IMG/VR virus record: IMGVR_UViG_3300009550_000008
Reading direction: 5' to 3' (one strand)
Length of the DNA stretch: 64,000 bases
Source: a virus
Positions 301 to 62,099 of this stretch are shown piece by piece. The notes under the pieces were generated by a model. It was not told the DNA's origin. It saw nothing but the letters and a program-made list of their open reading frames with translations, and did not search any database. The number at the start of each line of letters is the position of its first letter. The first letter of the stretch is position 1. The translations under genes were made by a program, and so were the position numbers.

Positions 301-711
301 ATGACGCATTTAGATATATTTGGTCAATTCAGACCGTTCGCAATTGGATTTGATAGATACTTCGAAGACCTCGATAGACTATCTAATCTTTCACAACCCA
401 ACTACCCACCTTACAATGTTGTAAAGGTTGACGATGAAAATTTCATTGTTGAACTTGCAGTTGCTGGTTTTGGTAAAAAAGATGTTTCTGTTACTAAAGA
501 GAAGAATCTTCTTATCATTGAGGGTAAAGTAGAAGACGCCGAAAAAGAATTCGTTCACAAAGGTTTGGCTTCTAGAGCATTCAAGAGATCATGGACTCTT
601 GCAGACAATGTTGAAATTGATTCTGCAGAGTTGAAAGACGGCATCTTGTCTGTTAGTTTAGTGAAGGTTATTCCCGAAGAGGATAAACCAATCTCTATAA
701 AAATCTCTTAA
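301..711 (+). CDS. hsp20: Small heat shock protein Hsp20 (IbpA-like)
   Basis: IGFD, YPPYNVVK, ELAVAGF, HKGLASRAF, LKDGILSV motifs. Confidence 0.95.
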   Translation: MTHLDIFGQFRPFAIGFDRYFEDLDRLSNLSQPNYPPYNVVKVDDENFIVELAVAGFGKKDVSVTKEKNLLIIEGKVEDAEKEFVHKGLASRAFKRSWTLADNVEIDSAELKDGILSVSLVKVIPEEDKPISIKIS

Positions 712-777: not shown

Positions 778-1299
778 ATGTTATCAGTAGGAGAACAGTT
801 CCCAAGTTTTACACTTAAGGGAATTAATGAAAACAACGAATTTGTTGATGTAGAAGTTAATGAAGGATATACGCCTTTGAAAAAAGACTGGTCTGTAGTT
901 TACTTTTACCCGAAAGACTTTACATTCATATGTCCAACAGAAATTGCTGGAATGGATATCTTAGTCGATCATGCAAATGTTGTTGGTATCAGTGGTGATA
1001 ACGAGTTCTGTAAATTAGCATGGAAACAAGATAATGAGTTGATAGGTTCTATCAGACATTCACTTGCAGCTGATTGTGGACTTGGACTATCACATCAACT
1101 AGGTATCGTAGATGATGAAAATGGTGTTTGTTATCGTGCAACATTCATTTTCGACAAAGACAGAGTCATTCAACATGCATCAATCAATGCATTAGACACT
1201 GGACGAAATGCACAGGAAGTTCTAAGAACTTTACAAGGATTACAAGCTGGTGGACTCACTGGTTGTGCATGGAACGAAGGTGATGAGTTTGTTGGTTAA
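778..1299 (+). CDS. ahpC: Peroxiredoxin AhpC/TSA
   Basis: FYPKDFTFICPTE peroxidatic Cys motif; GRNAQEVLR. Confidence 0.95.
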   Translation: MLSVGEQFPSFTLKGINENNEFVDVEVNEGYTPLKKDWSVVYFYPKDFTFICPTEIAGMDILVDHANVVGISGDNEFCKLAWKQDNELIGSIRHSLAADCGLGLSHQLGIVDDENGVCYRATFIFDKDRVIQHASINALDTGRNAQEVLRTLQGLQAGGLTGCAWNEGDEFVG

Positions 1300-1349: not shown

Positions 1350-2603
1350 ATGTACTTTCAATATACTTTAGACGATTTAAAACAAAATTCTTCTCAGAAG
1401 AAATTCTCATATATTACATTCTTTGCAGGCGGTGGTGGTTCATCGTGTGGATATAAACTCGCAGGTGGTGATGTTCGATACATGAATGAGTTCCAACAGA
1501 TTCATGTTGACACTTATCTTAAGAACTTCCCTGATACTGTACACGAATGTAAAGATATCAAACAAGTGACTGGTAAAGGCATTATGGAACTTACTGGTCT
1601 CAAACCATATGAACTTGATCTACTGGATGGGTCACCACCTTGTCCACCTTTCTCTATGGCTGGAACCAAGAGAGAAGGATGGGAACAAGAGAAGGTTGCA
1701 TATGGAATGAAACAACAAAACATCGAAGACCTTACATGGGAACAAATTAGAATTGCTGGTGAACTCAAACCCAAAGTAATTGTATGTGAGAATGTAAAAG
1801 GTCTCTCTATGGATTATGCAAGAGATCATCTTAACAAGATGGTCACAGATTTTGAAGCACTAGGTTATTCAGTTGTATGGAAGATCATGAAAGGACATGA
1901 ACATGGAGTACCTCAAAAGAGAGAAAGAGTATTCATGGTTGGTGTTCGTGATGATGTTCTAGAAGCAATTGGTAGACCTTGGATGACTCTAGGAAGTATC
2001 TTCCCTGAACCATCAGATCAATATGCAACGATCAGTCAAGCAATTGATGATCTTGAAGATGATGAAGAGAATATCGAAGATGCTAAATACTTAGAACAAG
2101 CTATGAAAGATTCATCAAAAGGTCATTGGGTTCATGGATTTGAAAAACATCCTGATGAAAAGTTTGCAAACTGTACACCATGTAAAGGTATTGATGGTGT
2201 TGCAGATAAAGAGAATATGTCCTATGTTTCTATTGGAGATCATATTGTAAAACCTTGGTTCCAAGAGAACATTAGATTAGGACACATACCAGCGGAAGAC
2301 GAGAAACATTCTTATTATATGTCTAGGATAGTTCCAAAACATTTACCAGCTCATTCATTGACTGAACAAGGATGTCAACCTAAATTTATGGGTGGTAATC
2401 ATTTCCATTACAACGGTAAGAGAATTTATACACCAAGGGAAATGGTAAGACTTATGTCACTACCTAACGATTATCAAATGACTGGTGATTACAATGATAA
2501 GGGTGCAAGGATTGGATTAATGGTTGCACCACTATGCTTGTATTATCTAGTTGAAGAAATCAAAAAACAGATATTAGAACCATGGAACACATTGCAAAAG
2601 TAG
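1350..2603 (+). CDS. DNA (cytosine-5)-methyltransferase
   Basis: Motif I FFAGGGG, IV GSPPCPPFS, VI ENVKGL, VIII QKRERVF, IX-X TPREMVRLMSLP..IG. Confidence 0.93.
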   Translation: MYFQYTLDDLKQNSSQKKFSYITFFAGGGGSSCGYKLAGGDVRYMNEFQQIHVDTYLKNFPDTVHECKDIKQVTGKGIMELTGLKPYELDLLDGSPPCPPFSMAGTKREGWEQEKVAYGMKQQNIEDLTWEQIRIAGELKPKVIVCENVKGLSMDYARDHLNKMVTDFEALGYSVVWKIMKGHEHGVPQKRERVFMVGVRDDVLEAIGRPWMTLGSIFPEPSDQYATISQAIDDLEDDEENIEDAKYLEQAMKDSSKGHWVHGFEKHPDEKFANCTPCKGIDGVADKENMSYVSIGDHIVKPWFQENIRLGHIPAEDEKHSYYMSRIVPKHLPAHSLTEQGCQPKFMGGNHFHYNGKRIYTPREMVRLMSLPNDYQMTGDYNDKGARIGLMVAPLCLYYLVEEIKKQILEPWNTLQK

Positions 2604-3580
2604 ATCACGGTTTCAAAGAAACCTACGATAAGTGGAACGGAAAGTTCCTAGACAAATCATCATACGATGAAGTTATATCATCTATAGGAGTAGATGAGAA
2701 AGTAATTAAAGTAAGTAAACCAGTTGCATCTATTACAGGTGATATGGCTCCACTTGCATATATTGTTAAAGGTGAATACACTGGAGACAATTATCAGACT
2801 ATTAAAGATACATTGTTTTCAATTGATGATGTCTCAACTATGAGAGCAAATGCATCAGGCCCAATCGATCATGAGGATATGAAAAAGAAAGGATTGATCG
2901 AAGGTGTACATTACAAACTAAGAACACCTAACTCTTACTATCCACTTAAAAAGAATGGTAAGTTCAATCGTATTGCAGAAGCAAATGCAATTCATTCTGT
3001 ATTGATAGGATATAAGAGAGGAAGATTTACAGGGATGATTAATCCTAGTGGTTGGATGAAGAAGAAATCTAATCAACAAAAGTGGGAAGTATTACAGAAG
3101 ATTGCACCTCTTAACGAAGGTGCATTAAAGATCGCTGCTCCCGATGTGTGGCGTCAGCAAAGATCATTTGCAGACAATTATATTGAAAGTAAGTATCACA
3201 TCGGGGGCGCACCTATCACGGCTTTATCTGCAAACAGATATTCCAGTGAAGGTACTGCAAAAATGTCAGCACATCTAGATGGAAAAGATTTAGAGTTTGG
3301 ATTGACAACAATGTGTGTTTTCAGGATTGGAGACTTCAAGGGTGCATATCTTTGTTTCCCTAGATACGGTCTTGCAATAGAAGCTGATGATGGTGATGTA
3401 TTGATTGCAGATTCAAATGAATTACATGGTGTTACACCTATCGAAGGAAATGGTGTGAGACTTTCATGTGTTGCATATTGTGATGAACATGTTGCAACAA
3501 TGGGTATTGGTGGTAAATCAGAAAACCCGATTGGCCCATCTAACAAAGATAAACATGGAAGTCTAGACGAGTTTTTTTAG
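2582..3580 (+). CDS. TET/JBP-family 2OG-Fe(II) dioxygenase (putative 5mC oxidase)
   Basis: AHLDGKD (HxD), GAYLCFPRYGLAI..GDVLIAD, HGVTPI, RLSCVAY; directly follows the C5-MTase. Confidence 0.85.
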   Translation: MEHIAKVDHGFKETYDKWNGKFLDKSSYDEVISSIGVDEKVIKVSKPVASITGDMAPLAYIVKGEYTGDNYQTIKDTLFSIDDVSTMRANASGPIDHEDMKKKGLIEGVHYKLRTPNSYYPLKKNGKFNRIAEANAIHSVLIGYKRGRFTGMINPSGWMKKKSNQQKWEVLQKIAPLNEGALKIAAPDVWRQQRSFADNYIESKYHIGGAPITALSANRYSSEGTAKMSAHLDGKDLEFGLTTMCVFRIGDFKGAYLCFPRYGLAIEADDGDVLIADSNELHGVTPIEGNGVRLSCVAYCDEHVATMGIGGKSENPIGPSNKDKHGSLDEFF

Positions 3581-4117
3581 ATGATATACTTAATCGGTGG
3601 AGTACCATGTTCAGGTAAATCAACCCTGATGAGAGGTCTTATCTCTCGTTTAGAAGAACCTAAACTTGTAGAACCTATGCCTCTATTCAAATGTCAGGAA
3701 CATGGTGACATTCTAGTATGTGGTCAGTATCCCGAAGGAGAAACATTCGGTGGTACAGATAGATTATCATATGGTGCAATACCACACTTTAGAGAATTTT
3801 GTGATGGTATCAGTATTGGATATAAACATACTATTATAGAAGGTGATCGATTCTTTAGAGCAGAAGATATAGAATGGGTACTAGACAATCATGAATCAGA
3901 AGTTTACATTCTTACAGTTGACTCAGATGAAGAGAAACGAAGACACGAAGAACGACAAGATACTCAAACAGAGAAATGGTTACAGGGTCGTAGAAGTCAG
4001 ATAGATAACATTCAAAAGAATTTCAATCTTATGGGAAGGTTAAATGTGGTCAACAACAGAGACATTCAAACTTCCCTAAGAATAGCTGATGAAATCTACG
4101 GGAAAATTATTTCATGA
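3581..4117 (+). CDS. P-loop nucleotide kinase of the type found in base-modification clusters
   Basis: Walker A GVPCSGKST; GQYPEGETFGGTDRLS; IIEGDR. Confidence 0.75.
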   Translation: MIYLIGGVPCSGKSTLMRGLISRLEEPKLVEPMPLFKCQEHGDILVCGQYPEGETFGGTDRLSYGAIPHFREFCDGISIGYKHTIIEGDRFFRAEDIEWVLDNHESEVYILTVDSDEEKRRHEERQDTQTEKWLQGRRSQIDNIQKNFNLMGRLNVVNNRDIQTSLRIADEIYGKIIS

Positions 4118-4689
4118 TTGTTCTTGTTCTAGGTGCTTCATGCAGTGGTAAGTCAACGATGTTAAATAATCTTTGTGATAGATTACATACTCCAAAAGAA
4201 GATATTTTTGAACCTCTTCCATTTTGGAAATGTAGAGAATACGGAGACATATTAAATGTTGAATCATATCCAATTAAGTATCCACCAAATCAAGTGTTCA
4301 ATGGAACAGAAGTAATAACTGCAGAGAACACTATCTATGATGGTGACTCAGGAGTTTCAGAGATTCCAAAGTATCAAGACTTCTGTAGATGGGCCGATTA
4401 CTCATATGTACATACACTTATAGAATGTGATATGTACTGGAAAAGTCAAGAGATACAATGGGTATTAGATAACCATGATGCACAAGCTTTTCTTTTAACA
4501 GTTGATTCGGATGAAGAACTTAGAAGACATAATGAAAGACATAGTACACAATCTGAGGAAGAAAAACTATTGTGTAAATTGCAGATAAATAATATACAAA
4601 AGAACATTAATGAACTTAATGTGAGAGAAAACAATACCACTGAATCTTCATTAAAAATTGAAGACGAGATTTATGCCAAAGTTATTTAA
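4114..4689 (+). CDS. Diverged paralogous P-loop kinase
   Basis: GASCSGKST; shares WVLDNH, LTVDSDEE.RRH.ER, NIQKN and DEIY.K with the upstream gene. Confidence 0.75.
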   Translation: MIVLVLGASCSGKSTMLNNLCDRLHTPKEDIFEPLPFWKCREYGDILNVESYPIKYPPNQVFNGTEVITAENTIYDGDSGVSEIPKYQDFCRWADYSYVHTLIECDMYWKSQEIQWVLDNHDAQAFLLTVDSDEELRRHNERHSTQSEEEKLLCKLQINNIQKNINELNVRENNTTESSLKIEDEIYAKVI

Positions 4690-4987
4690 AGAAGTTTATA
4701 GGGTTGTAGAAAACCCACATGAAACAGACGCTGGGATAGAGATCATCAGTGGAGAATGGGAGGGTTTAGTTTACCAGTACGGTGATGTACAATTCGAAGA
4801 TGGTAAACCTCATTTGAATTTTAAGAGAACTATAAGAAGGTTACCTCAATCAGGTGACACTGTAGAAGACTTAGAAAAAAACGAGGAACTAAATAACCTT
4901 ATGGGCGACATACTTGTAGAGTTAATACAAGAACAAATAGAGAGGGATAAAGAAATTGAACAAAGAAGTATTGAAGGAACAGATTAA
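4673..4987 (+). CDS. Conserved hypothetical phage protein
   Basis: GEWEGLVYQYGDV..LMGDILVELI; ATG at 4673. Confidence 0.6.
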   Translation: MPKLFKEVYRVVENPHETDAGIEIISGEWEGLVYQYGDVQFEDGKPHLNFKRTIRRLPQSGDTVEDLEKNEELNNLMGDILVELIQEQIERDKEIEQRSIEGTD

Positions 4988-5411
4988 AAGACACGAAGGT
5001 GAGGTCTTAGAAGTCTACGAAGATTCGTTAGGATATCTAACATTAGGCGTGGGTCACTTGATTCAGAAGTCAGACCCCGAATACGGACAACCAGCTGGAA
5101 CTCCAGTTAGTCAAAATGTAGTAGATTTATACTACACAGATGATTTTGATAAGCATGTCGATGAAACGATTCATGTATGTGAAAACAACAATATCGTTTT
5201 TGATGCATTACCTGAAAACATTCAACATGTTCTAGTGAATATGTGTTTCAACTTAGGTGCAAATCGATTAGGTAAATTCAGAAACATGTTAGCTGCAGTT
5301 TCTACATCTGATTGGAAAGAGATGGCAAGTCAGATGGAAGACAGCAGATGGTTCGGTCAAGTTGGTCGAAGATCAGTTGAGTTACAAGAAATGGTATTGG
5401 AGTTATCATGA
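4956..5411 (+). CDS. T4-type lysozyme (GH24)
   Basis: HEG..YEDSLGYLTLGVGH catalytic E/D/T; NMCFNLG; SRWFGQVGRR. Confidence 0.9.
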   Translation: MNKEVLKEQIKRHEGEVLEVYEDSLGYLTLGVGHLIQKSDPEYGQPAGTPVSQNVVDLYYTDDFDKHVDETIHVCENNNIVFDALPENIQHVLVNMCFNLGANRLGKFRNMLAAVSTSDWKEMASQMEDSRWFGQVGRRSVELQEMVLELS

Positions 5412-5650
5412 GCAAAGATATGACAAATGATTTATTGAAAGCTGTTGTTGCACATGCAGACGGTCAGATAGAAAAACACAAAATTAATGTTCTTGTACAA
5501 TGCAAGAACTCAGTTGGTGTTGCAGAGCATGGTGACCATGTAGAAACAATTCAAAAGGAAATGGAACAGATTGCACATTATGAAGACATAAAAGATGTAG
5601 TCCGTAAACATTTTGGAGAATATACAGATAGAACTACATTGACAGAATAG
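5408..5650 (+). CDS. Conserved hypothetical protein
   Basis: VGVAEHGD motif seen in marine T4-like phages. Confidence 0.6.
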   Translation: MSKDMTNDLLKAVVAHADGQIEKHKINVLVQCKNSVGVAEHGDHVETIQKEMEQIAHYEDIKDVVRKHFGEYTDRTTLTE

Positions 5651-5673
5651 AACATCCCTAGTATAATTATATA

Positions 5674-8190
5674 ATGGATTTCTATACAAATGTCTGTCGA
5701 ACCCGTGACAAAATTCTAGTCAAAGGATATCAAGGTAAGAAACAAGTCAAGATGGCTGTTTCTTATCGTCCTAATCACTACATCCCCTCGAAGAAAGGGG
5801 ACACTGCATTCAAGTCATTAGATGGTAGATCACTGGAAGCAGTGAATCTAAACTCTATGGGTGGTGCAAGAAAGTTTCGAGAGAGATACTCAGGTGTCGA
5901 AGGATTCGAAATCCATGGATACGACAAGTATATCTACACTTATATCGCAGAGAAGTTCAAAGGTGATATAGAATACAATCCTAAACTAATCAAAGTTGCA
6001 TCCCTCGATATCGAGTGTGAGTGTGAAGATGGATTCCCTGAACCAATGATTGCTGGAGAGAAGGTTAATGCAATCTCCATCAAACCATTTGGAAAAGAAA
6101 CTGTAGTATTCGGTATCGGCCCATGGAATCATGATCGTACTGATGTGATCTATCACGAATGTACAAACGAAGCAAACCTATTGATGAAGTTCATCAAGTA
6201 TTGGAGAACTGAATCATTCGATATCATTACAGGATGGAATGTGAACTCATTCGATATCACATATCTTTGTAATCGTATCGATAGAATCCTAGGTGAAGAT
6301 GAACATAAAAAGCTATCACCATGGAATCAATCAGATGTTCGTGAGTTTACTGCTCATGGATATCAGAAACAACAGGTTTACAATCTCTATGGTGTGAATG
6401 TTCTTGACTATCTAGAACTATATCGTAAACATACATTTGTAAATCAAGAATCCTACAGACTAGATCACATTGCAAATGTCGAACTTGGTAAAAGTAAATT
6501 AGATTATTCAGAGTATGGAAATCTGCATACACTTTACAAACAAGACTATCCAAAGTTTCTTGAGTATAATGTACAGGATGCTGTACTGGTCGAAGAACTA
6601 GAAGAGAAACTAGGATTGATCGAACTCGTTCAAGCGATGAGTTACAATGCAAAGTGTAATTACAACGATACCTTTGGAATGGTGAAGTATTGGGAAACCA
6701 TTATCTACAACTTCCTTAAAGAACAAAACATTCAAACACCACCACAAAGACTTAGGACTGGTAATGACAAGATGAAACCTATCATAGGTGCCTATGTCAA
6801 AGACCCGTTAGTCGGTGGTCATGATTGGGTGGTGTCGTTTGACTTGAACTCACTGTATCCACATATCATCATGCAGTACAATATCAGTCCTGAGAAGATG
6901 GTAAAAGAATACAAAGAGGATGTATCAATTGATCGATTACTCAACAAAGAATGTAATCTATCATATCTAAAACAACAGAACAACACAGTTTGTCCCAACG
7001 GTGCAAAATTCAAAAGAGATCGTCAAGGTTTCCTACCTGAACTCATGGAGAAATTCTATGATGAAAGGAAGCAATGGAAGAGAAAGATGATCGAATATCA
7101 GATTGAACGAGAATCTTGTAAAGATCGTAAACGACTTAGAGAACTCGATACTCTCATCAAGAGAGCAAACAACAATCAGATGGTTCGTAAGATTGCACTG
7201 AACTCAGCTTACGGTGCATTGGCAAATCAGTATTTTGCATTCTTTTCTATTGACCTTGCAGAGGCAATCACTACATCAGGTCAGTTGATTATCAAATGGT
7301 CTGAGAGAACTATCAATGACTTCATGAACAAAACATTAGGTACTGAGGATGAAGACTTTGTAATTGCAATGGATACTGATTCAGTCTATATCACTATGGA
7401 CAAACTGGTTCAGAAGGTTTTACCCGAAGAGACAGACAAGGGTAAGATCATCGACTTCTTAAACAAATCAGAAGGTATGTTTGAGAAGGTACTTGCAGAT
7501 GGTTTCGATGAACTATCTGAGTACACAAATGCCTTTCAAAACAAGATGGAAATGGGGAGAGAGGTGATCGCTGATCGTGGTATTTGGACTGCAAAGAAAA
7601 GATACATTCTAAATGTCCACGACAACGAGGGAGTTAGACTTGCAGAACCCAAACTGAAAATGATGGGTATCGAAACTGCAAAGTCGTCAACACCACAATG
7701 GGTTAGAACTAAACTCACAGAAGCTTTTAAGGTTGTGATGAATGGTACTGAACAAGACCTATGGGAATTCGTAGAGACCTCACGAAAGGAATTTCGTAAT
7801 CTACCACCTGAACAGGTTGCATTCCCGAGAGGATGCAAAGGTTTAGTCCAATATGCATGTCCAACACATATTTACTCCAAAGGAACTCCGATTCATGTTC
7901 GAGGTTCGCTGTTGTACAATCATCATCTTAAAAAGAAGAACATCGACAGACGATATGAAATGATTAAGAACGGAGAAAAGATTGCATTCAGTTATCTAAC
8001 CGTTCCAAATCCAATCAACGAGAATGTCATTTCATTCATGAATGTTCTACCGAGAGAGTTAGACCTACACCGTTTTATTGATTATGATATGCAATTCAAC
8101 AAAGCTTTTGTTGACCCTCTAAAAGTCGTAATCAGTTTAATCGGGTGGAATGTTGAACCAGTTGCAAGTCTAGACTCCTTTTTTGGATAA
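5674..8190 (+). CDS. 43: DNA polymerase family B (gp43)
   Basis: DIECE exonuclease I; SFDLNSLYPHII; KIALNSAYG; DTDS; KKRY; C-terminal clamp peptide SLDSFFG. Confidence 0.98.
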   Translation: MDFYTNVCRTRDKILVKGYQGKKQVKMAVSYRPNHYIPSKKGDTAFKSLDGRSLEAVNLNSMGGARKFRERYSGVEGFEIHGYDKYIYTYIAEKFKGDIEYNPKLIKVASLDIECECEDGFPEPMIAGEKVNAISIKPFGKETVVFGIGPWNHDRTDVIYHECTNEANLLMKFIKYWRTESFDIITGWNVNSFDITYLCNRIDRILGEDEHKKLSPWNQSDVREFTAHGYQKQQVYNLYGVNVLDYLELYRKHTFVNQESYRLDHIANVELGKSKLDYSEYGNLHTLYKQDYPKFLEYNVQDAVLVEELEEKLGLIELVQAMSYNAKCNYNDTFGMVKYWETIIYNFLKEQNIQTPPQRLRTGNDKMKPIIGAYVKDPLVGGHDWVVSFDLNSLYPHIIMQYNISPEKMVKEYKEDVSIDRLLNKECNLSYLKQQNNTVCPNGAKFKRDRQGFLPELMEKFYDERKQWKRKMIEYQIERESCKDRKRLRELDTLIKRANNNQMVRKIALNSAYGALANQYFAFFSIDLAEAITTSGQLIIKWSERTINDFMNKTLGTEDEDFVIAMDTDSVYITMDKLVQKVLPEETDKGKIIDFLNKSEGMFEKVLADGFDELSEYTNAFQNKMEMGREVIADRGIWTAKKRYILNVHDNEGVRLAEPKLKMMGIETAKSSTPQWVRTKLTEAFKVVMNGTEQDLWEFVETSRKEFRNLPPEQVAFPRGCKGLVQYACPTHIYSKGTPIHVRGSLLYNHHLKKKNIDRRYEMIKNGEKIAFSYLTVPNPINENVISFMNVLPRELDLHRFIDYDMQFNKAFVDPLKVVISLIGWNVEPVASLDSFFG

Positions 8191-8198
8191 ATAGAAGT

Positions 8199-8621
8199 AT
8201 GGCATACAGTAAAAAGGTAGTAGATAGATTTAATAATGTTCTAAATGACCCTCAGAAACATGCAGTTGGGAGGTTTGACCCCAACGACCCGAATGTTGCA
8301 ACAGGAATGGTAGGGGCACCAGCGTGTGGTGATGTCATGAAACTAGATTTAAAACTAGACATAGACGATAGAATCGAAGATGTAAAGTTTAAAACATACG
8401 GATGTGGTTCTGCAATTGCATCATCAAGTTTGTTTGTTGATATGTTGATAGGTAAGACTATCTCAGAAGCAAAACAAATACAGGACAAAGATATTGCAGA
8501 GATATTAGAATTACCACCGATCAAACTCCATTGTAGTGTATTGGCAGAGGAGGCCATATGTAAAGCAATCGAACACTGGGAGAAAAAAACCAGTAATCGA
8601 AAACATAATTACAATAAATAA
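8199..8621 (+). CDS. iscU: Fe-S cluster scaffold IscU
   Basis: GAPACGDVMKL, FKTYGCGSAIASS, LPPIKLHCSVLAE. Confidence 0.95.
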   Translation: MAYSKKVVDRFNNVLNDPQKHAVGRFDPNDPNVATGMVGAPACGDVMKLDLKLDIDDRIEDVKFKTYGCGSAIASSSLFVDMLIGKTISEAKQIQDKDIAEILELPPIKLHCSVLAEEAICKAIEHWEKKTSNRKHNYNK

Positions 8622-22851: not shown

Positions 22852-23427
22852 ATGAGAATCATAGACACATTAATTGTATTCCGAATCATTAAACTGTTAG
22901 TCACACCGTTTAATAAACAGAAAGCCTTTAAGTTGGGTTTCATCGATTCAAAAGGTAAAAGAATAACTCACAATGAGGATGGAACTAGAAACGACCCATT
23001 CACAAAGATGGAGAAGAGTTCTTATACTCTACTTCATAGATTAGTATTCAACCTTAAAAAGATCATAGAAAAGGTTCCTTTTGGTAAGACACAATTTGCA
23101 TCATACGCTGTTGCACTTGCAATACTAAAGGAACATTGTGAACTATCAGATGACCAAGCAGAAGAACTCTACGAGAAGTTCTATCGTCATTTGAAAGAGA
23201 CAAACCAACTGAATCCTGAACACATTACAGAGTCAGTTGGGTTTCCCGTATTAACTAGAGGAACATATAGACTTCGTCACTATACTAGAGATTTAAACGA
23301 TGAACAACTTGACCCTAAGACTGCAGTCGATATCCAAGGAGAGATTGCAAAGGTATTTGGAATCTCAGTATATGAGGGTTATGTTGGTGAATCTAAAATC
23401 TACTTGAGTGCTGAAGATGTTTATTGA
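22852..23427 (+). CDS. Conserved T4-like hypothetical late protein
   Basis: YTLLHRLVFNLKKI..SYAVAL; TATAAATA at 22839-22846. Confidence 0.7.
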   Translation: MRIIDTLIVFRIIKLLVTPFNKQKAFKLGFIDSKGKRITHNEDGTRNDPFTKMEKSSYTLLHRLVFNLKKIIEKVPFGKTQFASYAVALAILKEHCELSDDQAEELYEKFYRHLKETNQLNPEHITESVGFPVLTRGTYRLRHYTRDLNDEQLDPKTAVDIQGEIAKVFGISVYEGYVGESKIYLSAEDVY

Positions 23428-24148
23428 GTCAGTCCTAGAAATAGTAAACATGGTCTTCAAACCACTGAAAGACCTGAAAGAACCAAAGTATAAGAAGTTA
23501 GAGATTTGGAATCAGGGGTGGGAGACTATCGATATAGGTACACCACCTACAGGAAACGAAGTTGTTAAAGAGATTCATCAGGTACAGGATGAGTACAGAA
23601 CTGCAACAGACGAACAGAAACAACAGTACATTAATTGTGATATGGATGCATCATATTACATTAAACTCTACATGGAAGATCATGATTTAGATTATGATGA
23701 AGATGAGATTGAATTCATCGAACAACAATGTAGACCTATCATAAAACATTATAAGAACTTTTACAATCGACCAAGACCATATCAAGTTGCAGAGGCATTA
23801 GATATAGAGTTTGATCGATTCGTAACTAAAACTGCAAAGACACCATCATTCCCAAGTGGACATACAGTCCAACCTATAGTCGTTGCAGAGTATTATGCAA
23901 AGAAATACCCACAACATAGATCAGGACTTATGAAGGGTGCAAAGATATGTGGTTATGGAAGAGTAATCGCTGGAATGCATTATCCCTCAGATTATGATGC
24001 TGGTGTGAAATTAGGAGAAGAACTAATAGACTTCCTAAACATGGGATTGAAAGAAGATGCTCCAGTTAACTCAACAGGAGGTGGAATATCCATGCCTCCT
24101 ACAATGAAGAAAAAGAAAAAGAAAGATGAAGTCCTAAAACGATTCTAA
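23417..24148 (+). CDS. PAP2-family acid phosphatase/haloperoxidase
   Basis: K..YNRPRP, SFPSGH, RVIAGMHYPSD. Confidence 0.88.
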   Translation: MFIESVLEIVNMVFKPLKDLKEPKYKKLEIWNQGWETIDIGTPPTGNEVVKEIHQVQDEYRTATDEQKQQYINCDMDASYYIKLYMEDHDLDYDEDEIEFIEQQCRPIIKHYKNFYNRPRPYQVAEALDIEFDRFVTKTAKTPSFPSGHTVQPIVVAEYYAKKYPQHRSGLMKGAKICGYGRVIAGMHYPSDYDAGVKLGEELIDFLNMGLKEDAPVNSTGGGISMPPTMKKKKKKDEVLKRF

Positions 24149-44513: not shown

Positions 44514-45707
44514 ATGAAAATTATTGGATACAACTCATCCCACGAAACATCCCTATGTCAGTTTGATTCTGATACATGGGACTTAGACTTTCTTTTCGAA
44601 GAAGAAAGGTTTAGACGAGTCAAGCAATGGACACCCGAACCACCACAACATCAGTTGTTGTGTATCGATAGAGAAGTCATACAGACACCCGATCATTTTA
44701 TTGGATGCTCTTTTGATCGAAGAGAATTCGTTCATGACTTGGGTGGTCTTGAATGGAACAGAGATTATCTTAAGTACAATAAGAAACTCAATCGTCAACT
44801 ATTAGACTTCATTGAACAGGAACAAATGACTGAGGATAGATTGATTGAGATGAATTCTACATTCCCGAATGTTTTCACTGAGTTTAATCTAGATAAACTT
44901 AAGAAGGATGACGGACAAGCGAGGGATGACTTTCTTCATTCTACTGTCGCTGAACAGCTGTTCCTCGAAGAGTTTGTTTACGAAATTCAACATCATCTTT
45001 ACCATGCAGAGTGTGGTTATTGGTTCAGTCCTTGGAGAGAGAAAGAGTCTGCAATTGCTATCGTATGTGATGGTGGTGGTGCAAAGTTATATCATGAGAA
45101 AGGATTCCCGAACTATCAAGAAGTCGAAACCGTTTACCTATGTCAACCCGATACCGTTCCTGAGAAACAATGGCAGAGAATGTCTAACTATCGTTACTTG
45201 GATATGTGGGCAGGTGATATCTTTTATGAAGAGTCTAGAGAACGAGTACAGATGGCACCTGATCTTATTAAAGACATGAACGGAGTCGAAACAGTATTCA
45301 ATAGTAAACCATCGATGGGACAAATCTTTAGTGCATTGAGTATGTTCTTTGGGTTTGATCGTCTTGGTCGTGCAGCGGGTAAAGTTATGGGTGCAGCTTC
45401 TTATCAACATTGGTACGAAGATGAGTCTTACTTTGACATGACCACATACAGTTTAGGTAATCAGTTACAACAAAAAGCTTTCGATCATACATGTAAGATC
45501 ATACAAAGAGCAGTGGATAAGAATCCTGATGTCAAGAATATAATCTTGTCAGGTGGTTATGCATTGAACTGTACTAACAATGCAAAGTATCTCGATGCAT
45601 TCCCTAATCATCAAATCTTTGTTGACCCAGTTGCACACGATGGTGGAACTGCAGTGGGTGGTGCAATCAGATTAGCTCGTGCATTAAAACATGGAGAAGA
45701 AGTATGA
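44514..45707 (+). CDS. Carbamoyltransferase N-terminal (Kae1-like) subunit, NodU/CmcH family
   Basis: EEERFRRVK, HHLYHA, DGGG, GKVMG, SGGYALNC, DGGTAVG. Confidence 0.9.
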   Translation: MKIIGYNSSHETSLCQFDSDTWDLDFLFEEERFRRVKQWTPEPPQHQLLCIDREVIQTPDHFIGCSFDRREFVHDLGGLEWNRDYLKYNKKLNRQLLDFIEQEQMTEDRLIEMNSTFPNVFTEFNLDKLKKDDGQARDDFLHSTVAEQLFLEEFVYEIQHHLYHAECGYWFSPWREKESAIAIVCDGGGAKLYHEKGFPNYQEVETVYLCQPDTVPEKQWQRMSNYRYLDMWAGDIFYEESRERVQMAPDLIKDMNGVETVFNSKPSMGQIFSALSMFFGFDRLGRAAGKVMGAASYQHWYEDESYFDMTTYSLGNQLQQKAFDHTCKIIQRAVDKNPDVKNIILSGGYALNCTNNAKYLDAFPNHQIFVDPVAHDGGTAVGGAIRLARALKHGEEV

Positions 45708-46339
45708 TCGTTACCGAGATTCACAGAGAACAATCAGTTGTCGTAGATCATTTATTAAAGAGACAACAGATCGTTGCAATCTATCAGAATCATTCCGAGT
45801 GGGGCCCAAGAGCATTGGGTAATCGTTCAATACTTTTTGACCCTACCAATCCCGAAGCAAAAGACATAGTCAACTCAGTAAAGAAGAGAGAACACTATCG
45901 TCCTTTTGCATGTACCATCCTAGAAGAATATGCACATGAGTATGTGGACATGAAACAATTGAAGTCAAGTCCATACATGTCGTTTGCATTTCAGTGTACG
46001 GAGAAAGCACTAGATGAAATCCCTGCTCTTATACATTGTGATAACACTTGCAGAATACAAACAGTTAATGAAGAACAAAATAAAAACTACTACAATCTTA
46101 TCAAAGCTATGTACGAAGAGAACGGTGTACCTATTGTTTTTAATACTAGCTTTAACCTACACGGTGAATCTATGGTAGAGACGATCTATGATGCAGTGCA
46201 TACTTGTAATCATTCAGAGATCAATCATCTGTATGTACCCGAAGATCAGGATGTACATATCCCTACAGACTTTATTAAAGTTAAAGGTGACAAAGATTAT
46301 AGCAACTTTGAGACCTCTCACAACAGGAACACTGTATAA
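45704..46339 (+). CDS. Carbamoyltransferase C-terminal (YrdC-like) subunit
   Basis: EWGPRALGNRSIL, KKREHYRPFA, HCDNTCRIQTV, NTSFN. Confidence 0.92.
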   Translation: MIVTEIHREQSVVVDHLLKRQQIVAIYQNHSEWGPRALGNRSILFDPTNPEAKDIVNSVKKREHYRPFACTILEEYAHEYVDMKQLKSSPYMSFAFQCTEKALDEIPALIHCDNTCRIQTVNEEQNKNYYNLIKAMYEENGVPIVFNTSFNLHGESMVETIYDAVHTCNHSEINHLYVPEDQDVHIPTDFIKVKGDKDYSNFETSHNRNTV

Positions 46340-47010: not shown

Positions 47011-47050
47011 TAAATACATTCTATACAGCAATTATATGAGGATTAAGAAC

Positions 47051-48463
47051 ATGCGTTCGTTTTCAGAAGTTATCCGTGAGGAAACTGATAACAAGAAACC
47101 CTACCGCCTAGTGGTGATAGCAGAAAGACGCATGGTGAAAAAGTCTAAGAAGAACTCAGATAAACCAGTTGTAAAAAAACCAAGTTCAACATCAAGTAAA
47201 CTCTACGGTCTTGCAAAGGAAGCGGGTTGTGATGTTTACAGTGTCAGAGTTAATGGTGCATACATCGAGAGAGCAGACGATGGTGTAATCACAATTCACA
47301 ACTCAGATGATGAGAAAGGATTTCATTTAGATGGTGACACAATCATAATGATTCGTGGAGCTGTTACTGCAAAAGATTCTTATCTAGATTTAATCAGTCA
47401 AATAGAACGATACGGTTTCCCAGTGGTAAACTCTAGGGAGTGTATCGAAGTATGTGCAGATAAGTTTAGAACTTATCTAAGACTTCAAGAGATTGGTATG
47501 AACCAACCTCGAACAGTATTGATTCCAAACGAAGAACCCGAGACAGTCGACATGGCTGCAAAGAGATTAGACGATGAGTTCCCTATGGTGCTTAAAACTC
47601 TACAGGGTGCAAAGGGTGTTGGAGTTCTATTGGTGGAGACTGAGAGATCACTACAATCAACGGTGAGTCTTGTATACAAGATTGACCCAACTTGTGATAT
47701 CCTATTACAAGAATACATCGACATGGAATATGATGTTCGTGTCATGATAAACAACAGAAGAGTTATCGGTGCAATGAAGAGGAAAAAAATCATTGATGAC
47801 TTTCGATCAAATATATCTCAAGGTGCAGAAGCCGAAGAGATAGAACTTACAGAACTAGAGAAAGAAACATGTTTGATAGCTGCAAAGGCTGTCAATGGTC
47901 AGTGGGTAGGTGTAGACTTTATTCCAGCAGAGGATAGAGAGAAGGAAGCACCTTACATTCTAGAGGTAAATCATTCGCCAGGAACTCAAGGTATCAGTGA
48001 TGCATTGGGTGAAGAGGTATGTGAAACAATTATAGACGATTACTTTGACAGAGATATATGGAGAAAGAAGGCAACTGAATGTGGCGTTCTAGAGACCATA
48101 GAGGTCGATGGTGAGACGATGACAGCGAAGTTGGACACTGGGAACAGTGCAAAGGCTTGTGCCTTACACGCCGACTCCTACGAGGTCAAAGGAAAGGTTG
48201 TTCACTTTGAAAGGAATGGTAAAAAATATAAGAAACCTTTACTTAGAATGTTGACTTTAATTAAACCCGCAGAAGAAAGACCAGTAGTCAAGTGTGAATT
48301 AAACTTCTTAAATACTATATATGAACAAGAAGTTAGTTTAGATCAGAGAGGGAATATCCCGTTTCTGGCGAATAGAGATTTTATGAATAGAGCTAACCTG
48401 ATGATAAATCCATCAAGGAAGTTCTTATTGACTAATAAACATGATGACACAGAAGACAACTAA
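47051..48463 (+). CDS. RimK-family ATP-grasp ligase fused to a retropepsin-like (RimB-type) protease domain
   Basis: DKFRTY, GAKGVGV, LLQEYI, DFRSNISQG, GVD, LEVNHSPG; C-terminal AKLDTGN. Confidence 0.85.
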   Translation: MRSFSEVIREETDNKKPYRLVVIAERRMVKKSKKNSDKPVVKKPSSTSSKLYGLAKEAGCDVYSVRVNGAYIERADDGVITIHNSDDEKGFHLDGDTIIMIRGAVTAKDSYLDLISQIERYGFPVVNSRECIEVCADKFRTYLRLQEIGMNQPRTVLIPNEEPETVDMAAKRLDDEFPMVLKTLQGAKGVGVLLVETERSLQSTVSLVYKIDPTCDILLQEYIDMEYDVRVMINNRRVIGAMKRKKIIDDFRSNISQGAEAEEIELTELEKETCLIAAKAVNGQWVGVDFIPAEDREKEAPYILEVNHSPGTQGISDALGEEVCETIIDDYFDRDIWRKKATECGVLETIEVDGETMTAKLDTGNSAKACALHADSYEVKGKVVHFERNGKKYKKPLLRMLTLIKPAEERPVVKCELNFLNTIYEQEVSLDQRGNIPFLANRDFMNRANLMINPSRKFLLTNKHDDTEDN

Positions 48464-51998: not shown

Positions 51999-52368
51999 GT
52001 CCGTTATTCGAGAACACAATCAAGACACATTAAGAATTGATCTACCATGGGACATGGTAAACAAAGTAGGATTCCGTTGGTACGATGAACTACGAGTCAT
52101 TCGAGACGATTATAAAATTCTTTTATCAGTCTTACCTTTACATAGGCCAGAGTTATACGAACATATAACACCAGTTAGATTCGTTAAGAAAGGTGGATGG
52201 GAAAACTCTAAGAACATATTCAGAGAAGTTGACAATGCTTACACTCTAATAGAAAAGGATTTTATCCCACAATTCTCAGAGGGTGATGAAGTAGAGTTTA
52301 CCTACATTCAAGAAACGGAGTCAGAGGAAAGACATGTCGAAGTCAAACATCCCAATTGTAGCAGTTGA
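51970..52368 (+). CDS. Hypothetical protein
   Basis: ORF in operon. Confidence 0.55.
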   Translation: MTETVDTSSKSVIREHNQDTLRIDLPWDMVNKVGFRWYDELRVIRDDYKILLSVLPLHRPELYEHITPVRFVKKGGWENSKNIFREVDNAYTLIEKDFIPQFSEGDEVEFTYIQETESEERHVEVKHPNCSS

Positions 52369-53263
52369 CCAATACGACTTCCTAGATCACCGTAGGCAAC
52401 AAGAGAAGAAGCATTGGAATAAGAAAGGTAATGATTTAAATGAACTTGATTCAATCCTCACCGTTGAAATTAATACTACTGAGTTGTGTAATCGTACATG
52501 CGTCTTTTGTCCGAGGCATGACCCAAGAGTATTTCCCAATAGGCAATTGCACCTTACAGTTAAAGGTGCATCGACCATCGCAGAAGAACTAGCTGACAAT
52601 CAATATCAGGGAAAGATTTCTTTCTCAGGTTTCGGAGAGAACTTACTCAACCCAAACTTTGTAGACATCGTAAAGGAATTCAGATTCAATCTACCACAAG
52701 CAACAATAGAATGTAACACTAACGGTGATAAGTTAGATGCAGTCTATGTAACAAAACTATTCAGAGCGGGGTTAGACTTACTCTATATAAACTTATATGA
52801 TGGAGTCAAACAGATAGATCATTTCGATCACATCATGCAGAGTGCAATGATACCACAAGCACAATACAAGTATCGTATGCATTGGGGAGACTTTGAGAAA
52901 CACGGATTAATATTAAACAATCGATCAGGTGTGATTGATTGGGTAGGGGTAGAGGAGAGTGATGTGGAATCGCTACAAGGGAAACCATGTCACTATCCGT
53001 TCTACAAAATGTTCGTTGACTGGAATGGTGATGTACTATTCTGTTCAAACGATTGGGGGAGAGAACATGTTGTCGGTAACTTATTGCAACAGTCGTTGCA
53101 TGAGGTATGGTTCTCTAAACCTATGAATAAGATACGGCGACGATTAATGAGGGGTGACCGTTCTAAGTCACCATGTAATAAATGTAGTGTCGATGGTTCA
53201 CTATTCGGTAAACCATCATTTGAATTAATTAAGGATTACTATGAGAGCCCTAATAACAGGTAA
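52334..53263 (+). CDS. Radical SAM protein with SPASM/twitch domain
   Basis: CNRTCVFC; GFGENLL; TNGD; CHYPF..DWNGDVLFCSND..PCNKC. Confidence 0.92.
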   Translation: MSKSNIPIVAVDQYDFLDHRRQQEKKHWNKKGNDLNELDSILTVEINTTELCNRTCVFCPRHDPRVFPNRQLHLTVKGASTIAEELADNQYQGKISFSGFGENLLNPNFVDIVKEFRFNLPQATIECNTNGDKLDAVYVTKLFRAGLDLLYINLYDGVKQIDHFDHIMQSAMIPQAQYKYRMHWGDFEKHGLILNNRSGVIDWVGVEESDVESLQGKPCHYPFYKMFVDWNGDVLFCSNDWGREHVVGNLLQQSLHEVWFSKPMNKIRRRLMRGDRSKSPCNKCSVDGSLFGKPSFELIKDYYESPNNR

Positions 53264-59148: not shown

Positions 59149-59741
59149 TGACGAGTCGTGAAGGATATGATGCATACACTTTATATCTTGGTATAAAGTT
59201 ACACTTCTATTCTACCGACTACAATTTCATTAAGTATAACGGTAAAGTCAAAGCAGATATAAACTCATTCGTTAAACGAAAAGATAAGTATCACTTTGGT
59301 AAGTTATACAAAAAGTATAAACAGAACCTACAGGATTTCTACATTGCAAATCTATCTGTTTATGATCTATGGGCTGGTGATCTTCTAGAGAATGAATGTG
59401 AGAAGAGATACATGGAGTGGAAGAAAAGACAACAGAAACTTTCCTACATGTTTGAGACAGAAGTATCAGACCAAATTAGAAAATACAAGATTAATACTTT
59501 ACTTAAGGTAAACAAGGGACAACACCCTAGACTATTAAAAGCATACTTAGGTAAAGAGATAAGTTTGGAAACACTTTGTATTATGGATGAGATAATCGGA
59601 TTCAGTTCAGACTGGGAAAAACTGATACAGGAAAAGATCGTTTATCCCGAAGTCCATAACAAGATAAACAAATACAAAGCTTTCTTATCTTACCCACAAC
59701 AGGAATACAAAACCAAATTAATTGATCTATGCTCCACATAG
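59148..59741 (+). CDS. 59: Helicase loader gp59
   Basis: YLGIKLHF..YNFIKYNGK..KRKDKYHF; ISLETL. Confidence 0.9.
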   Translation: MTSREGYDAYTLYLGIKLHFYSTDYNFIKYNGKVKADINSFVKRKDKYHFGKLYKKYKQNLQDFYIANLSVYDLWAGDLLENECEKRYMEWKKRQQKLSYMFETEVSDQIRKYKINTLLKVNKGQHPRLLKAYLGKEISLETLCIMDEIIGFSSDWEKLIQEKIVYPEVHNKINKYKAFLSYPQQEYKTKLIDLCST

Positions 59742-60457
59742 TAGGTAACGGCCCAAGTCGTAAACAATATGATCTAAACTCTTTCGAAGAGTGGTGGGGA
59801 TGTAATGGTGTATACAGAGATCATACTCCTGATATACTATTCGTCCACGACATTCCCGTTCAACACCAAGCTGTTGTAGATGGATGTTTAGAGAGAGGAA
59901 AGGTTGCGGTCGGAGACTGGAATCATATGGAGATAGATTTGTGGGATGGATTGAAGATGGGATATCCGAATGCAATACACAATCGAACCGAGGATGATAC
60001 TCATTTTGTGGTTCAAGGGGAAGGACACGAAGTATATTTCACTAGCTATAATATACCTCTGGGCTGCAACATTATTATGTATAATTATGAGAAGCTCAAG
60101 AACACCTTTTGTGGTATCAGTGCATTAGGATATGCAGCTTACAATGGATACAAAGAGATTACTTTAGTAGGGTTTGATGCATTAGACCCTGAGTTAGATT
60201 CAGTTGATAATGTTTATCAAGGAACTGAGTTCTATCGCACTAAATACAATGCAAATGATACAGTTAACTACATTCAAAAGATGCAGTTCGTATCGTTGCT
60301 TGAAGACCCCTTGTTTAATGATATAAAGGTTTATTTCAAAAACCCTATTGACGATAACAAGGAAGTCATATATAATGAATTATGTTACTATGAAAATAGT
60401 AAATATAAGTGGTCGTTAGGTGTTAGTTCACTTCATGACTTTAATAAGATGCTATAA
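59729..60457 (+). CDS. Hypothetical protein (GT29/Maf-like Rossmann fold)
   Basis: IVGNGPSR..GCN..PD; ITLVGFD. Confidence 0.6.
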   Translation: MLHIVGNGPSRKQYDLNSFEEWWGCNGVYRDHTPDILFVHDIPVQHQAVVDGCLERGKVAVGDWNHMEIDLWDGLKMGYPNAIHNRTEDDTHFVVQGEGHEVYFTSYNIPLGCNIIMYNYEKLKNTFCGISALGYAAYNGYKEITLVGFDALDPELDSVDNVYQGTEFYRTKYNANDTVNYIQKMQFVSLLEDPLFNDIKVYFKNPIDDNKEVIYNELCYYENSKYKWSLGVSSLHDFNKML

Positions 60458-60490
60458 AATGCAATACGATGTTTAATACAAGGAGATACT

Positions 60491-61390
60491 ATGTCAACAT
60501 CATTAGATAAACTACGCGCAGCAATGGAATCTGCGTCTCCAACTCAAGGAGAAAAAAAGTCCTATTCCGATGACAGATTTTGGAAACCCGAACTCGATAA
60601 GAGTGGTAATGGGTTTGCAATAATCCGTTTCCTACCAACCCCCGAAGGTGAAGAAATGCCATGGGTCTCATATTGGGATCACGGCTTCCAAGGGCCAGGC
60701 GGATGGTATATTGAGAAGTCTTTAACGACTCTTAATAAACAAGACCCTGTGTCCGAGTACAATACTCAGTTATGGAACACTGGAATCGAAGCAAACAAAG
60801 AGATTGCAAGGAAACAGAAGCGTAGACTTCATTATGTTTCTAATGTCTATGTTGTTTCAGACCCTAAGAATCCTGATAACGAAGGTAAAGTATTCCTTTA
60901 TAAGTACGGTAAAAAAATCTTCGAACAGTTGAAAGAAGCAATTAGTCCAGCATTTGAGGACGAAGCTGCAATCAATCCTTTTGACTTAAGAGGAGAAGGT
61001 GCAAACTTCAAAATCAAAATCAGAAAAGTTGATGGTTACTGGAACTACGACAAGTCTGAGTTTGATAAAGCTGCACCACTTTTTGATGACGAAAATCAGT
61101 TGAATGATATATATACTTCTGTTCATTCGCTATCAGAAATTATATCACCTGATGAGTTCAAGTCTTATGACGAACTCAAAACTAAACTCGATAGAGTATT
61201 AGGACTATCAGGTGGAGTGAGTAATTCTACAGCAGAGTCAGTTGCAGAAGACCAAGAAGAAGTGCCTTGGGCAAATGTAAACACTGCCTCCGTTGCAGAT
61301 GAACCCGTAATTGCATCTGCTGATGCATCAGTTGGTGAAACTGGTGACGATGCGATGGATTACTTCAAGAAATTAGCTTCGGACAGTTAA
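60491..61390 (+). CDS. 32: Single-stranded DNA binding protein gp32
   Basis: DDRFWK, GNGFAIIRFLP, HGFQGPGGWYIE, YGKKIF, GANFKIK, NYDKSEF. Confidence 0.97.
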   Translation: MSTSLDKLRAAMESASPTQGEKKSYSDDRFWKPELDKSGNGFAIIRFLPTPEGEEMPWVSYWDHGFQGPGGWYIEKSLTTLNKQDPVSEYNTQLWNTGIEANKEIARKQKRRLHYVSNVYVVSDPKNPDNEGKVFLYKYGKKIFEQLKEAISPAFEDEAAINPFDLRGEGANFKIKIRKVDGYWNYDKSEFDKAAPLFDDENQLNDIYTSVHSLSEIISPDEFKSYDELKTKLDRVLGLSGGVSNSTAESVAEDQEEVPWANVNTASVADEPVIASADASVGETGDDAMDYFKKLASDS

Positions 61391-61910: not shown

Positions 61911-62099
61911 ATGTCAAAGGGAAGTAAAAGAAGACCTGAAACGGGAACTCAGTACCAAGATAATTGGGAACGAATCTTTGGCAAACCTGAGCCTAAGATA
62001 AAAGAACATAAGAAGACACCTTCACACGGACTTACTCAAGTCCATAAAGACCGAACCAAATATAATCGTAAGAAATTAAGAATCGACTTAGAATCCTAA
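61911..62099 (+). CDS. Small basic hypothetical protein
   Basis: KGSKRRP..YQDNWERIFG; VHKDRTKYNRK. Confidence 0.6.
   Translation: MSKGSKRRPETGTQYQDNWERIFGKPEPKIKEHKKTPSHGLTQVHKDRTKYNRKKLRIDLES

Follow-up and report, generated by a model that had tools for sequence, protein, structure and literature searches.

The 64,000-nt stretch IMGVR_UViG_3300009550_000008 of IMG/VR (the window, meaning the whole stretch analysed) is part of a marine T4-like myophage and carries a cassette of four genes: a C5-cytosine DNA methyltransferase (MT), a TET/JBP-type dioxygenase (TET) and two paralogous P-loop kinases, K1 and K2. Its presence and integrity are confirmed, and it is under purifying selection. It fairly likely serves a post-replicative modification that leads from cytosine to phosphorylated 5-hydroxymethylcytosine (5hmC) in DNA. 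Phosphorylation or activation of 5hmC in DNA by a kinase is a plausible reading and the best supported one. The idea is not a new route, having been published in 2021, and viewed as genomics alone, such cassettes are on record and widespread among marine T4-like phages. What distinguishes the window's cassette from the published class is the twin kinase with a divergent second copy.

An initial annotation, made from the sequence alone, had described four genes that overlap or abut, and the four open reading frames (ORFs) lie at exactly the coordinates first given, all on the + strand (Table 1): the 3′ end of MT runs 22 nt into TET, K1 starts directly after TET, and K2 overlaps the end of K1 at ATGA. 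The MT is full-length, as had been claimed, with motifs I (FFAGGGG, residue 24), IV (PPC, Cys98), VI (ENV, 147) and VIII (QKRER, 189). Going by its family, it would methylate cytosines of the phage DNA as the first step of the pathway, likely in a GpC context. TET scores 49.5 bits against PF12851 (cut-off 34.9), and the HxD..H..R signature attributed to it corresponds to H231-x-D233, H282 and R293, invariant in 30 distinct orthologues (49–99.7% identity). A phmmer search of PDB sequences returned nothing meaningful for TET, and TET, K1, K2 and the small downstream ORF o109 have no match in NCBIfam. In the second step TET would oxidise 5-methylcytosine (5mC) to 5hmC, judging by its family, its intact active site and the adjacent methyltransferase. 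The ratio of non-synonymous to synonymous substitution rates (dN/dS) between the window and the related locus L005 is 0.07 for MT and 0.10 for TET. The C-terminus of TET (window 3557–3580) reads GSLDEFF; orthologues (loci L001–L099) keep GSLD(E/S/G)FF, and distant forms end in GNLEEFF or SLESFLS. The peptide resembles the C-terminus of the window's DNA polymerase, ASLDSFFG (near 8170–8190), a sliding-clamp peptide of the T4 gp43 type, which suggests that TET rides on the sliding clamp, to which it is probably tethered by this polymerase-like end.

The GpC context appears likely because tested enzymes of clades A and B act there and the palindrome statistics of the window fit. The main text of Burke et al., 2021 (PNAS, PMC8256090) reports assays of methylases, TETs (GpC-specific, stopping at 5hmC) and glycosyltransferases (GTs), not of kinases. 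Expected palindrome counts were obtained from dinucleotide shuffles of the whole window. ACGT occurs 0 times (128±11 expected), CCGG once (40±6 expected), and AGATCT, ACTAGT, AGTACT and CGATCG are each absent, against expectations of 11–27. The GpC-containing GGCC, AGCT and TGCA reach 2.1, 1.6 and 1.2 times expectation, and the comparison of GpC-containing with other four-base palindromes gives p = 0.04 in a small sample (5 vs 10). Since CpG-type and other sites are avoided and GpC-containing sites are kept, the phage removes the former by sequence avoidance and need not remove the latter. The pattern agrees with protection by a GpC-directed modification and speaks against methylation of CpG.

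Profile, PHROG and predicted fold identify K1 as a distant homologue of the validated 5-hydroxymethyldeoxyuridine (5-hmdU) DNA kinase (5-HMUDK) M6 gp54. A K1-family profile of 28 sequences aligns with M6 gp54 in hhalign over 124 columns (93.9% probability, E 1.6e-7), and the alignment takes in the block that follows strand 2, with the shared pattern YP..G.T.G.DR (YPEGETFGGTDR in K1, YTPAAAGATTAGLDR in M6). Pairwise BLAST of K1 and M6 gp54 finds similarity confined to Walker A; the profile, PHROG and fold comparisons agree in extending the homology beyond it. The family phrog_800 is common to K1 and its Melnitz orthologue (~1e-11) and to M6 gp54 (2e-39); its label, 'terminase small subunit', is wrong, and RefSeq gives M6 gp54 and Cr30 gp114 the same wrong name. 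The AlphaFold2 (AF2) model of K1 has a confidence (pLDDT) of 88, and among the named viral models that it matches in BFVD are two 5-hmdU DNA kinases, from PhiW-14 (E 8e-7, template-modelling score (TM) 0.65) and SP10 (7e-5). K1-type clusters number 277 in a large protein database, and the dN/dS of K1 between the window and L005 is 0.15.

The position of K1 points the same way. Related loci were collected from IMG/VR with K1 and, separately, with TET as seed. All 47 of the K1-seeded loci with at least about 1.9 kb of upstream sequence contain TET, and MT is present wherever the sequence reaches it; synteny in related phages thus holds for the first three genes, K2 being limited to a narrow lineage (L002–L005, L045). 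The MT-TET-K1 block also stands downstream of the DNA polymerase, a different genomic setting, in Methylophilales phage Melnitz and in L052, so it appears to travel as a unit. Six TET-seeded loci lack K1 (L091–L095, L098). Between TET and o109, L092–L095 carry an epimerase, a TET-associated glycosyltransferase (TAGT, PF20691) and a spermine-synthase-like gene in place of K1; in L091 the slot holds a PF20691 TAGT, a T4-type DNA alpha-glucosyltransferase (PF11440, 6e-74) and a cytidylyltransferase, and in L098 three ORFs without a Pfam match. TET in the GT-type loci is 71–72% identical to that of the window. Behind orthologous TETs, one and the same slot is thus filled either by a kinase or by enzymes whose action on 5hmC in DNA is known, and this exchange is the best comparative argument for K1 acting on the TET product. 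The absence of a neighbouring glycosyltransferase, already remarked in the initial annotation, extends further: no glycosyltransferase family was found among 51 window ORFs scanned at E<=1e-5 (most of them >=170 aa, with ORFs under about 120 aa outside the cassette left out), and neither the GTs of the sister loci nor the genes that accompany them in the slot have a homologue anywhere in the 64 kb.

The spermine/spermidine-synthase-like gene of L092–L095 (PF01564, 1e-9; e.g., L094:8421-9212) is an unusual partner for DNA modification. Many relatives carry a variable gene between TET and K1, none of which is present in the window and none of which has a Pfam match. The commonest family, of 330–414 aa, occurs in L015, L020, L034, L035, L041, L044, L046 and L055 and has a faintly ParB/Noc-like N-terminus (LxSGFxRLxA); its profile matches Noc, of the ParB family, at a non-significant E of 0.76. 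A 2026 paper (PMC13229309) describes ParB-like proteins that partner phage TET/JBP enzymes. A 189-aa protein in the same place in L023 (3426-3995) and L047 (7435-8004) shows a D...ExK pattern typical of restriction-type nucleases, and Melnitz has a 427-aa protein between TET and kinase.

If K1 acts on the TET product, the third step would be transfer of the ATP gamma-phosphate to the hydroxymethyl group, giving 5-phosphomethylcytosine in DNA. Several points weigh against this. To our knowledge, no enzyme phosphorylates 5hmC in DNA. K1 reaches 21.9 bits against Ploopntkinase3 (PF18751), below the cut-off of 27, with many K1 orthologues carrying a precomputed match to this family; neither K1 nor K2 matches PF18748 (HMUDK_HMUD1, the 5-hmdU DNA kinase model), on which M6 gp54 scores 65 bits. 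Because the Pfam thresholds are not reached, K1 is taken to work like a DNA-base kinase and is not assigned to the 5-HMUDK family. Both window kinases are acidic (pI 5.2 for K1, 4.7 for K2), whereas M6 gp54 is basic (8.7); MT is also acidic (5.7). The nearest K1 homologue outside the group is gp114 of Caulobacter phage Cr30 (NC_025422 51788-52333, 30% identical), which lies 7 kb from a TET/JBP homologue (59353-60681, annotated 'SNF2 DNA repair protein') with no C5-methylase annotated next to it. The Cr30 pair may be a thymine-directed version, so the kinase family need not be 5hmC-specific. A large part of the evidence for synteny stems from a single phage lineage, and common descent could account for some of it. 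An amino-acid:DNA transferase (AADT, PF18724) or kinase helical-domain protein (PF18723) is present neither in the cassette nor among the 51 larger ORFs. K2 evolves fast, is missing from most relatives and has lost motifs shared with 5-HMUDK. Finally, the commercial 5-HMUDK is inactive on 5hmC (PMC6457204).

K2 is a paralogue of K1 (43% identity, BLASTP E 5e-56), in agreement with the two Walker-A kinases first annotated. Its 3′ end aligns with that of K1, including the overlapped start of o109, as expected for a tandem duplication, and the alignment indicates that K2 arose from K1 in this way. In L006, where K1 is 90% identical to that of the window, K1 is followed directly by o109. The protein database holds just 7 K2-type clusters (95–51% identity), and the Pfam matches of K2 are at Walker-A level only, with none to PF18751. 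The residues for ATP binding and catalysis are retained: invariant across the K2 homologues are Walker A (GK(S/T)T), E33-P34, H100, I-E-x-D106 and the lid residues E134-E135..R138..E141-R142. On the acceptor side, the FGGTD block of K1 and 5-HMUDK has become FNGTE or is deleted, W..GRRSQ is lost and an extra stretch of about 15 residues is present; in the AF2 model the fold is preserved, with residues 55–84 below pLDDT 50. In the comparison of the window with L005, where DNA identity of the flanks is about 94%, dN of K2 is 0.275 and dN/dS 0.69, vs 0.07–0.25 for all its neighbours.

K2 is either an active kinase with a reshaped acceptor side or a copy under relaxed constraint, at roughly even odds. 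That it is a recent tandem duplicate drifting without a distinct function, the twin kinase being noise in a variable slot, has a somewhat less than even chance. The high dN/dS, the few homologue clusters, the absence from most relatives including L006, the lost FGGTD and GRRSQ motifs, and an acceptor loop that is modelled at low confidence and deleted in one homologue all suggest drift. Against this, the frame is open in 8/8 sequences down to 51% identity, the lysine of Walker A, the aspartate of IExD and the Arg and Glu residues of the lid are invariant, and with dN/dS below 1 the gene is still under some constraint. An active K2 may add a second phosphate to 5-phosphomethylcytosine, serve other sequence contexts or act on another base. 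Phage ViI sets a precedent: it has two paralogous base kinases, gp67 and gp243, and both are active and make the monophosphate (PMC8989533).

Both kinases could instead work at the nucleotide level, as nucleoside or deoxynucleoside monophosphate (dNMP) kinases in the manner of T4 gp1 or of the thymidylate-kinase-like genes found in other modification clusters, feeding or salvaging pools and not acting on DNA. Their acidity is in keeping with such a role, as is the lack of a visible downstream transferase in the cassette or the 51 scanned ORFs, and among solved structures the nearest are kinases of the guanylate, nicotinamide-riboside and adenylate types. These PDB matches of K1 are to generic nucleoside monophosphate (NMP) and nucleoside kinases and are weak (TM ~0.5, root-mean-square deviation mostly 5–10 Å), whereas the viral fold and profile matches favour 5-hmdU DNA kinases; K1 and K2 show no family-level match to NMP/dNMP kinases, with just Walker-A-length matches to phrog_1815 and phrog_761. 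In favour of the nucleotide-level role, kinase genes of this kind do sit in pre-replicative modification clusters, e.g., in DLP3 and RB69 (PMC13326640). The pathway of the window, with MT and TET, is post-replicative, and no thymidylate-synthase-like hydroxymethylase was found among the scanned ORFs. Nucleotide salvage is less likely because of the affinities of K1 and its positional exchange with DNA glycosyltransferases, and a nucleotide-level role is rated unlikely.

It is very unlikely that TET oxidises thymine, with the kinases being ordinary 5-hydroxymethyluracil (5hmU) DNA kinases and the methylase a separate protective enzyme. Most phage 5mYOX enzymes are predicted T-dioxygenases (PMC13229309), known base kinases act on 5hmU, and Cr30 has its K1 homologue together with a TET lacking an adjacent MT. 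However, T-dioxygenase clades have no adjacent C5-MT and clade A/B enzymes with an overlapping C5-MT were shown to be 5mC dioxygenases (PMC8256090, PMC13229309). In the window and its relatives MT and TET always occur together, here with the 22-nt overlap, and the sister loci carry TET-associated GTs and the T4-type 5hmC alpha-glucosyltransferase.

As to what would follow phosphorylation by K1, the phosphorylated base may itself be the end product, given that neither an amino-acid:DNA transferase nor a GT was detected in the cassette or the 51 scanned ORFs, or a transferase of an unrecognised family may act on it to make a further substitution. More speculatively, such a substitution might proceed through the methylase's own Cys-C6 chemistry. 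A more specific version, in which both kinases, working one after the other or side by side, turn 5hmC into a phosphate or pyrophosphate ester that is the finished virion base with no transferase after them, is improbable. If true, the DNA would carry a base modification with negative charge that is as yet undescribed in nature, and the acceptor of K2 would be the phosphorylated base. The last alternative, that 5hmC or its phosphate ester is an intermediate finished by an enzyme encoded elsewhere, e.g., to 5-carbamoyloxymethylcytosine, rests on the NodU/TobZ-family enzyme that carbamoylates 5hmC in DNA (PMC8670742) and on a split Nol/NodU-type O-carbamoyltransferase in the window (N-domain ORF 44514-45707 and C-domain ORF 45704-46339, Carbam_trans_N and Carbam_trans_C, ATGA overlap), and is highly doubtful, as this gene lies 40 kb away, is unlinked to the cassette in all loci examined, has its relatives in cyanomyophages with none found in Melnitz, and carbamoylation needs no kinase.

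The genes on the + strand run in the order Hsp20, redoxin, MT, TET, K1, K2, o109, lysozyme-like gene, 80-aa ORF (o80) and family-B DNA polymerase, the last about 48% identical to cyanomyophage polymerases, and from MT through o80 each junction overlaps or abuts. Hsp20 precedes MT in most related loci and is a typical clade I/A neighbour; the redoxin is seen in nearer relatives only. The start of o109 always overlaps the kinase 3′ end in clade I/A relatives (translational coupling), and in a protein atlas o109 matches viral hypothetical proteins only. As pathway members, o109 and the lysozyme-like gene were considered and rejected: both are also kept in the GT-type loci and hence are not kinase-specific. 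The lysozyme-like gene is probably a conserved neighbour outside the pathway. Perfect sigma70 consensus promoters (TTGACA, 17–18 nt spacer, TATAAT) occur at 199–228, before hsp20, and at 5639–5667, before the polymerase, and no others are perfect; the block from MT to o80 has no internal one, and no convincing + strand terminator was found between the two.

Table 1. Modification cassette of the window and its flanking genes.
Feature	Position	Strand	Evidence
Hsp20 small heat-shock protein	301..711	+	PF00011 1.5e-17; phrog_432 1.3e-42
AhpC/TSA-type redoxin (peroxiredoxin)	778..1299	+	PF00578 6.8e-22
C5-cytosine DNA methyltransferase (MT), complete, 417 aa	1350..2603	+	PF00145 8.7e-51; TIGR00675 1.9e-43
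TET/JBP (5mYOX) Fe(II)/2-oxoglutarate dioxygenase, 332 aa	2582..3580	+	PF12851 3.7e-13
K1, P-loop kinase, Ploopntkinase3 / phrog_800 type, candidate 5hmC DNA kinase, 178 aa	3581..4117	+	phrog_800 1.1e-11
K2, tandem K1 paralogue, 191 aa	4114..4689	+	43% identity to K1
o109, small acidic protein	4673..4987 (alternative TTG start 4658)	+	phrog_3998 1e-8
T4-lysozyme-like protein	4956..5411	+	PF00959 9e-9; phrog_7 1.7e-17

Elsewhere the window encodes auxiliary genes for a NifU-like Fe-S scaffold (8199-8621, directly after the polymerase), a PAP2 phosphatase (23408-24148), a RimK-type ATP-grasp enzyme (47036-48463) and a radical-SAM/SPASM protein (52334-53263). Matches to an AAA_33/Zeta-type kinase, a cytidylyltransferase and SNase fall between 8 and 31 kb, and one to Sulfotransfer_2 between 32 and 62 kb. 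Coupled adenylylsulfate (APS)-kinase and sulfotransferase chemistry was rejected as an explanation of the cassette, APS kinase not being among the fold matches of K1. A 607-aa ORF on the − strand (62088-63911) has no Pfam match, and a change of sign in GC and AT skew at 62–64 kb points to a switch of transcription direction there.

A 5hmC DNA kinase, if real, would be a new step in phage cytosine hypermodification and a reagent for 5hmC labelling or sequencing. The window offers a compact K1 together with K2 as a natural variant for comparison. Among cultured phages only Melnitz, the nearest isolate and a member of the Kyanoviridae with an OM43 host, is closely related in its cassette; it carries the orthologous module, which makes the chemistry directly accessible.

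The closest known systems are the clade I/A clusters of Burke et al., who screened metaviromes for C5-MT/TET pairs. In its main text, their study gives the clade I/A neighbourhood as HSP (heat-shock protein), redoxin, C5-MT, TET and then a P-loop kinase or GT, proposes by analogy with 5-hmdU DNA kinases that the kinase phosphorylates TET-made 5hmC, and suggests further modification by downstream hypothetical proteins (PMC8256090). A search of the later literature yielded no report of a 5hmC DNA kinase. The window has the MT-TET pair, the TET catalytic residues and the HSP, redoxin and kinase order of this class. It shares the gene set and its order, with an AhpC-type redoxin, a C5-MT overlapping TET and a P-loop kinase where others have a GT. 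Compared with the clusters of that main text, the kinase of the window is doubled in tandem, the second copy belonging to a divergent, fast-evolving subfamily.

The 5-hmdU DNA kinases (M6 gp54, PhiW-14 gp37, SP10 gp186, ViI gp67/gp243; PMC5889632, PMC8989533) also reside in base-modification clusters and appear remotely homologous to K1, and ViI likewise has two paralogous kinases in one phage. In thymidine hypermodification, however, 5hmU is incorporated during replication, whereas the presumed substrate in the window is 5hmC made after replication by MT and TET; furthermore, no AADT, pyridoxal-phosphate (PLP) or radical-SAM partners adjoin the window kinases. Melnitz genes 5–8 (MZ577097) include orthologues of MT (54%), TET (55%) and K1 (55%), annotated there just as methylase and hypothetical proteins; the paper on Melnitz deals with a 'type II methylase' alone, and TET and the kinase go unmentioned. 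Unlike the window, Melnitz has the module downstream of the DNA polymerase (the clade II/B arrangement), the 427-aa gene in the variable slot and a single kinase. The GT-type sister loci (PF20691, PF11440) share with the window the MT-TET pair and the flanking o109, lysozyme-like gene and polymerase, and carry sugar-adding enzymes after TET where the window has its kinases.

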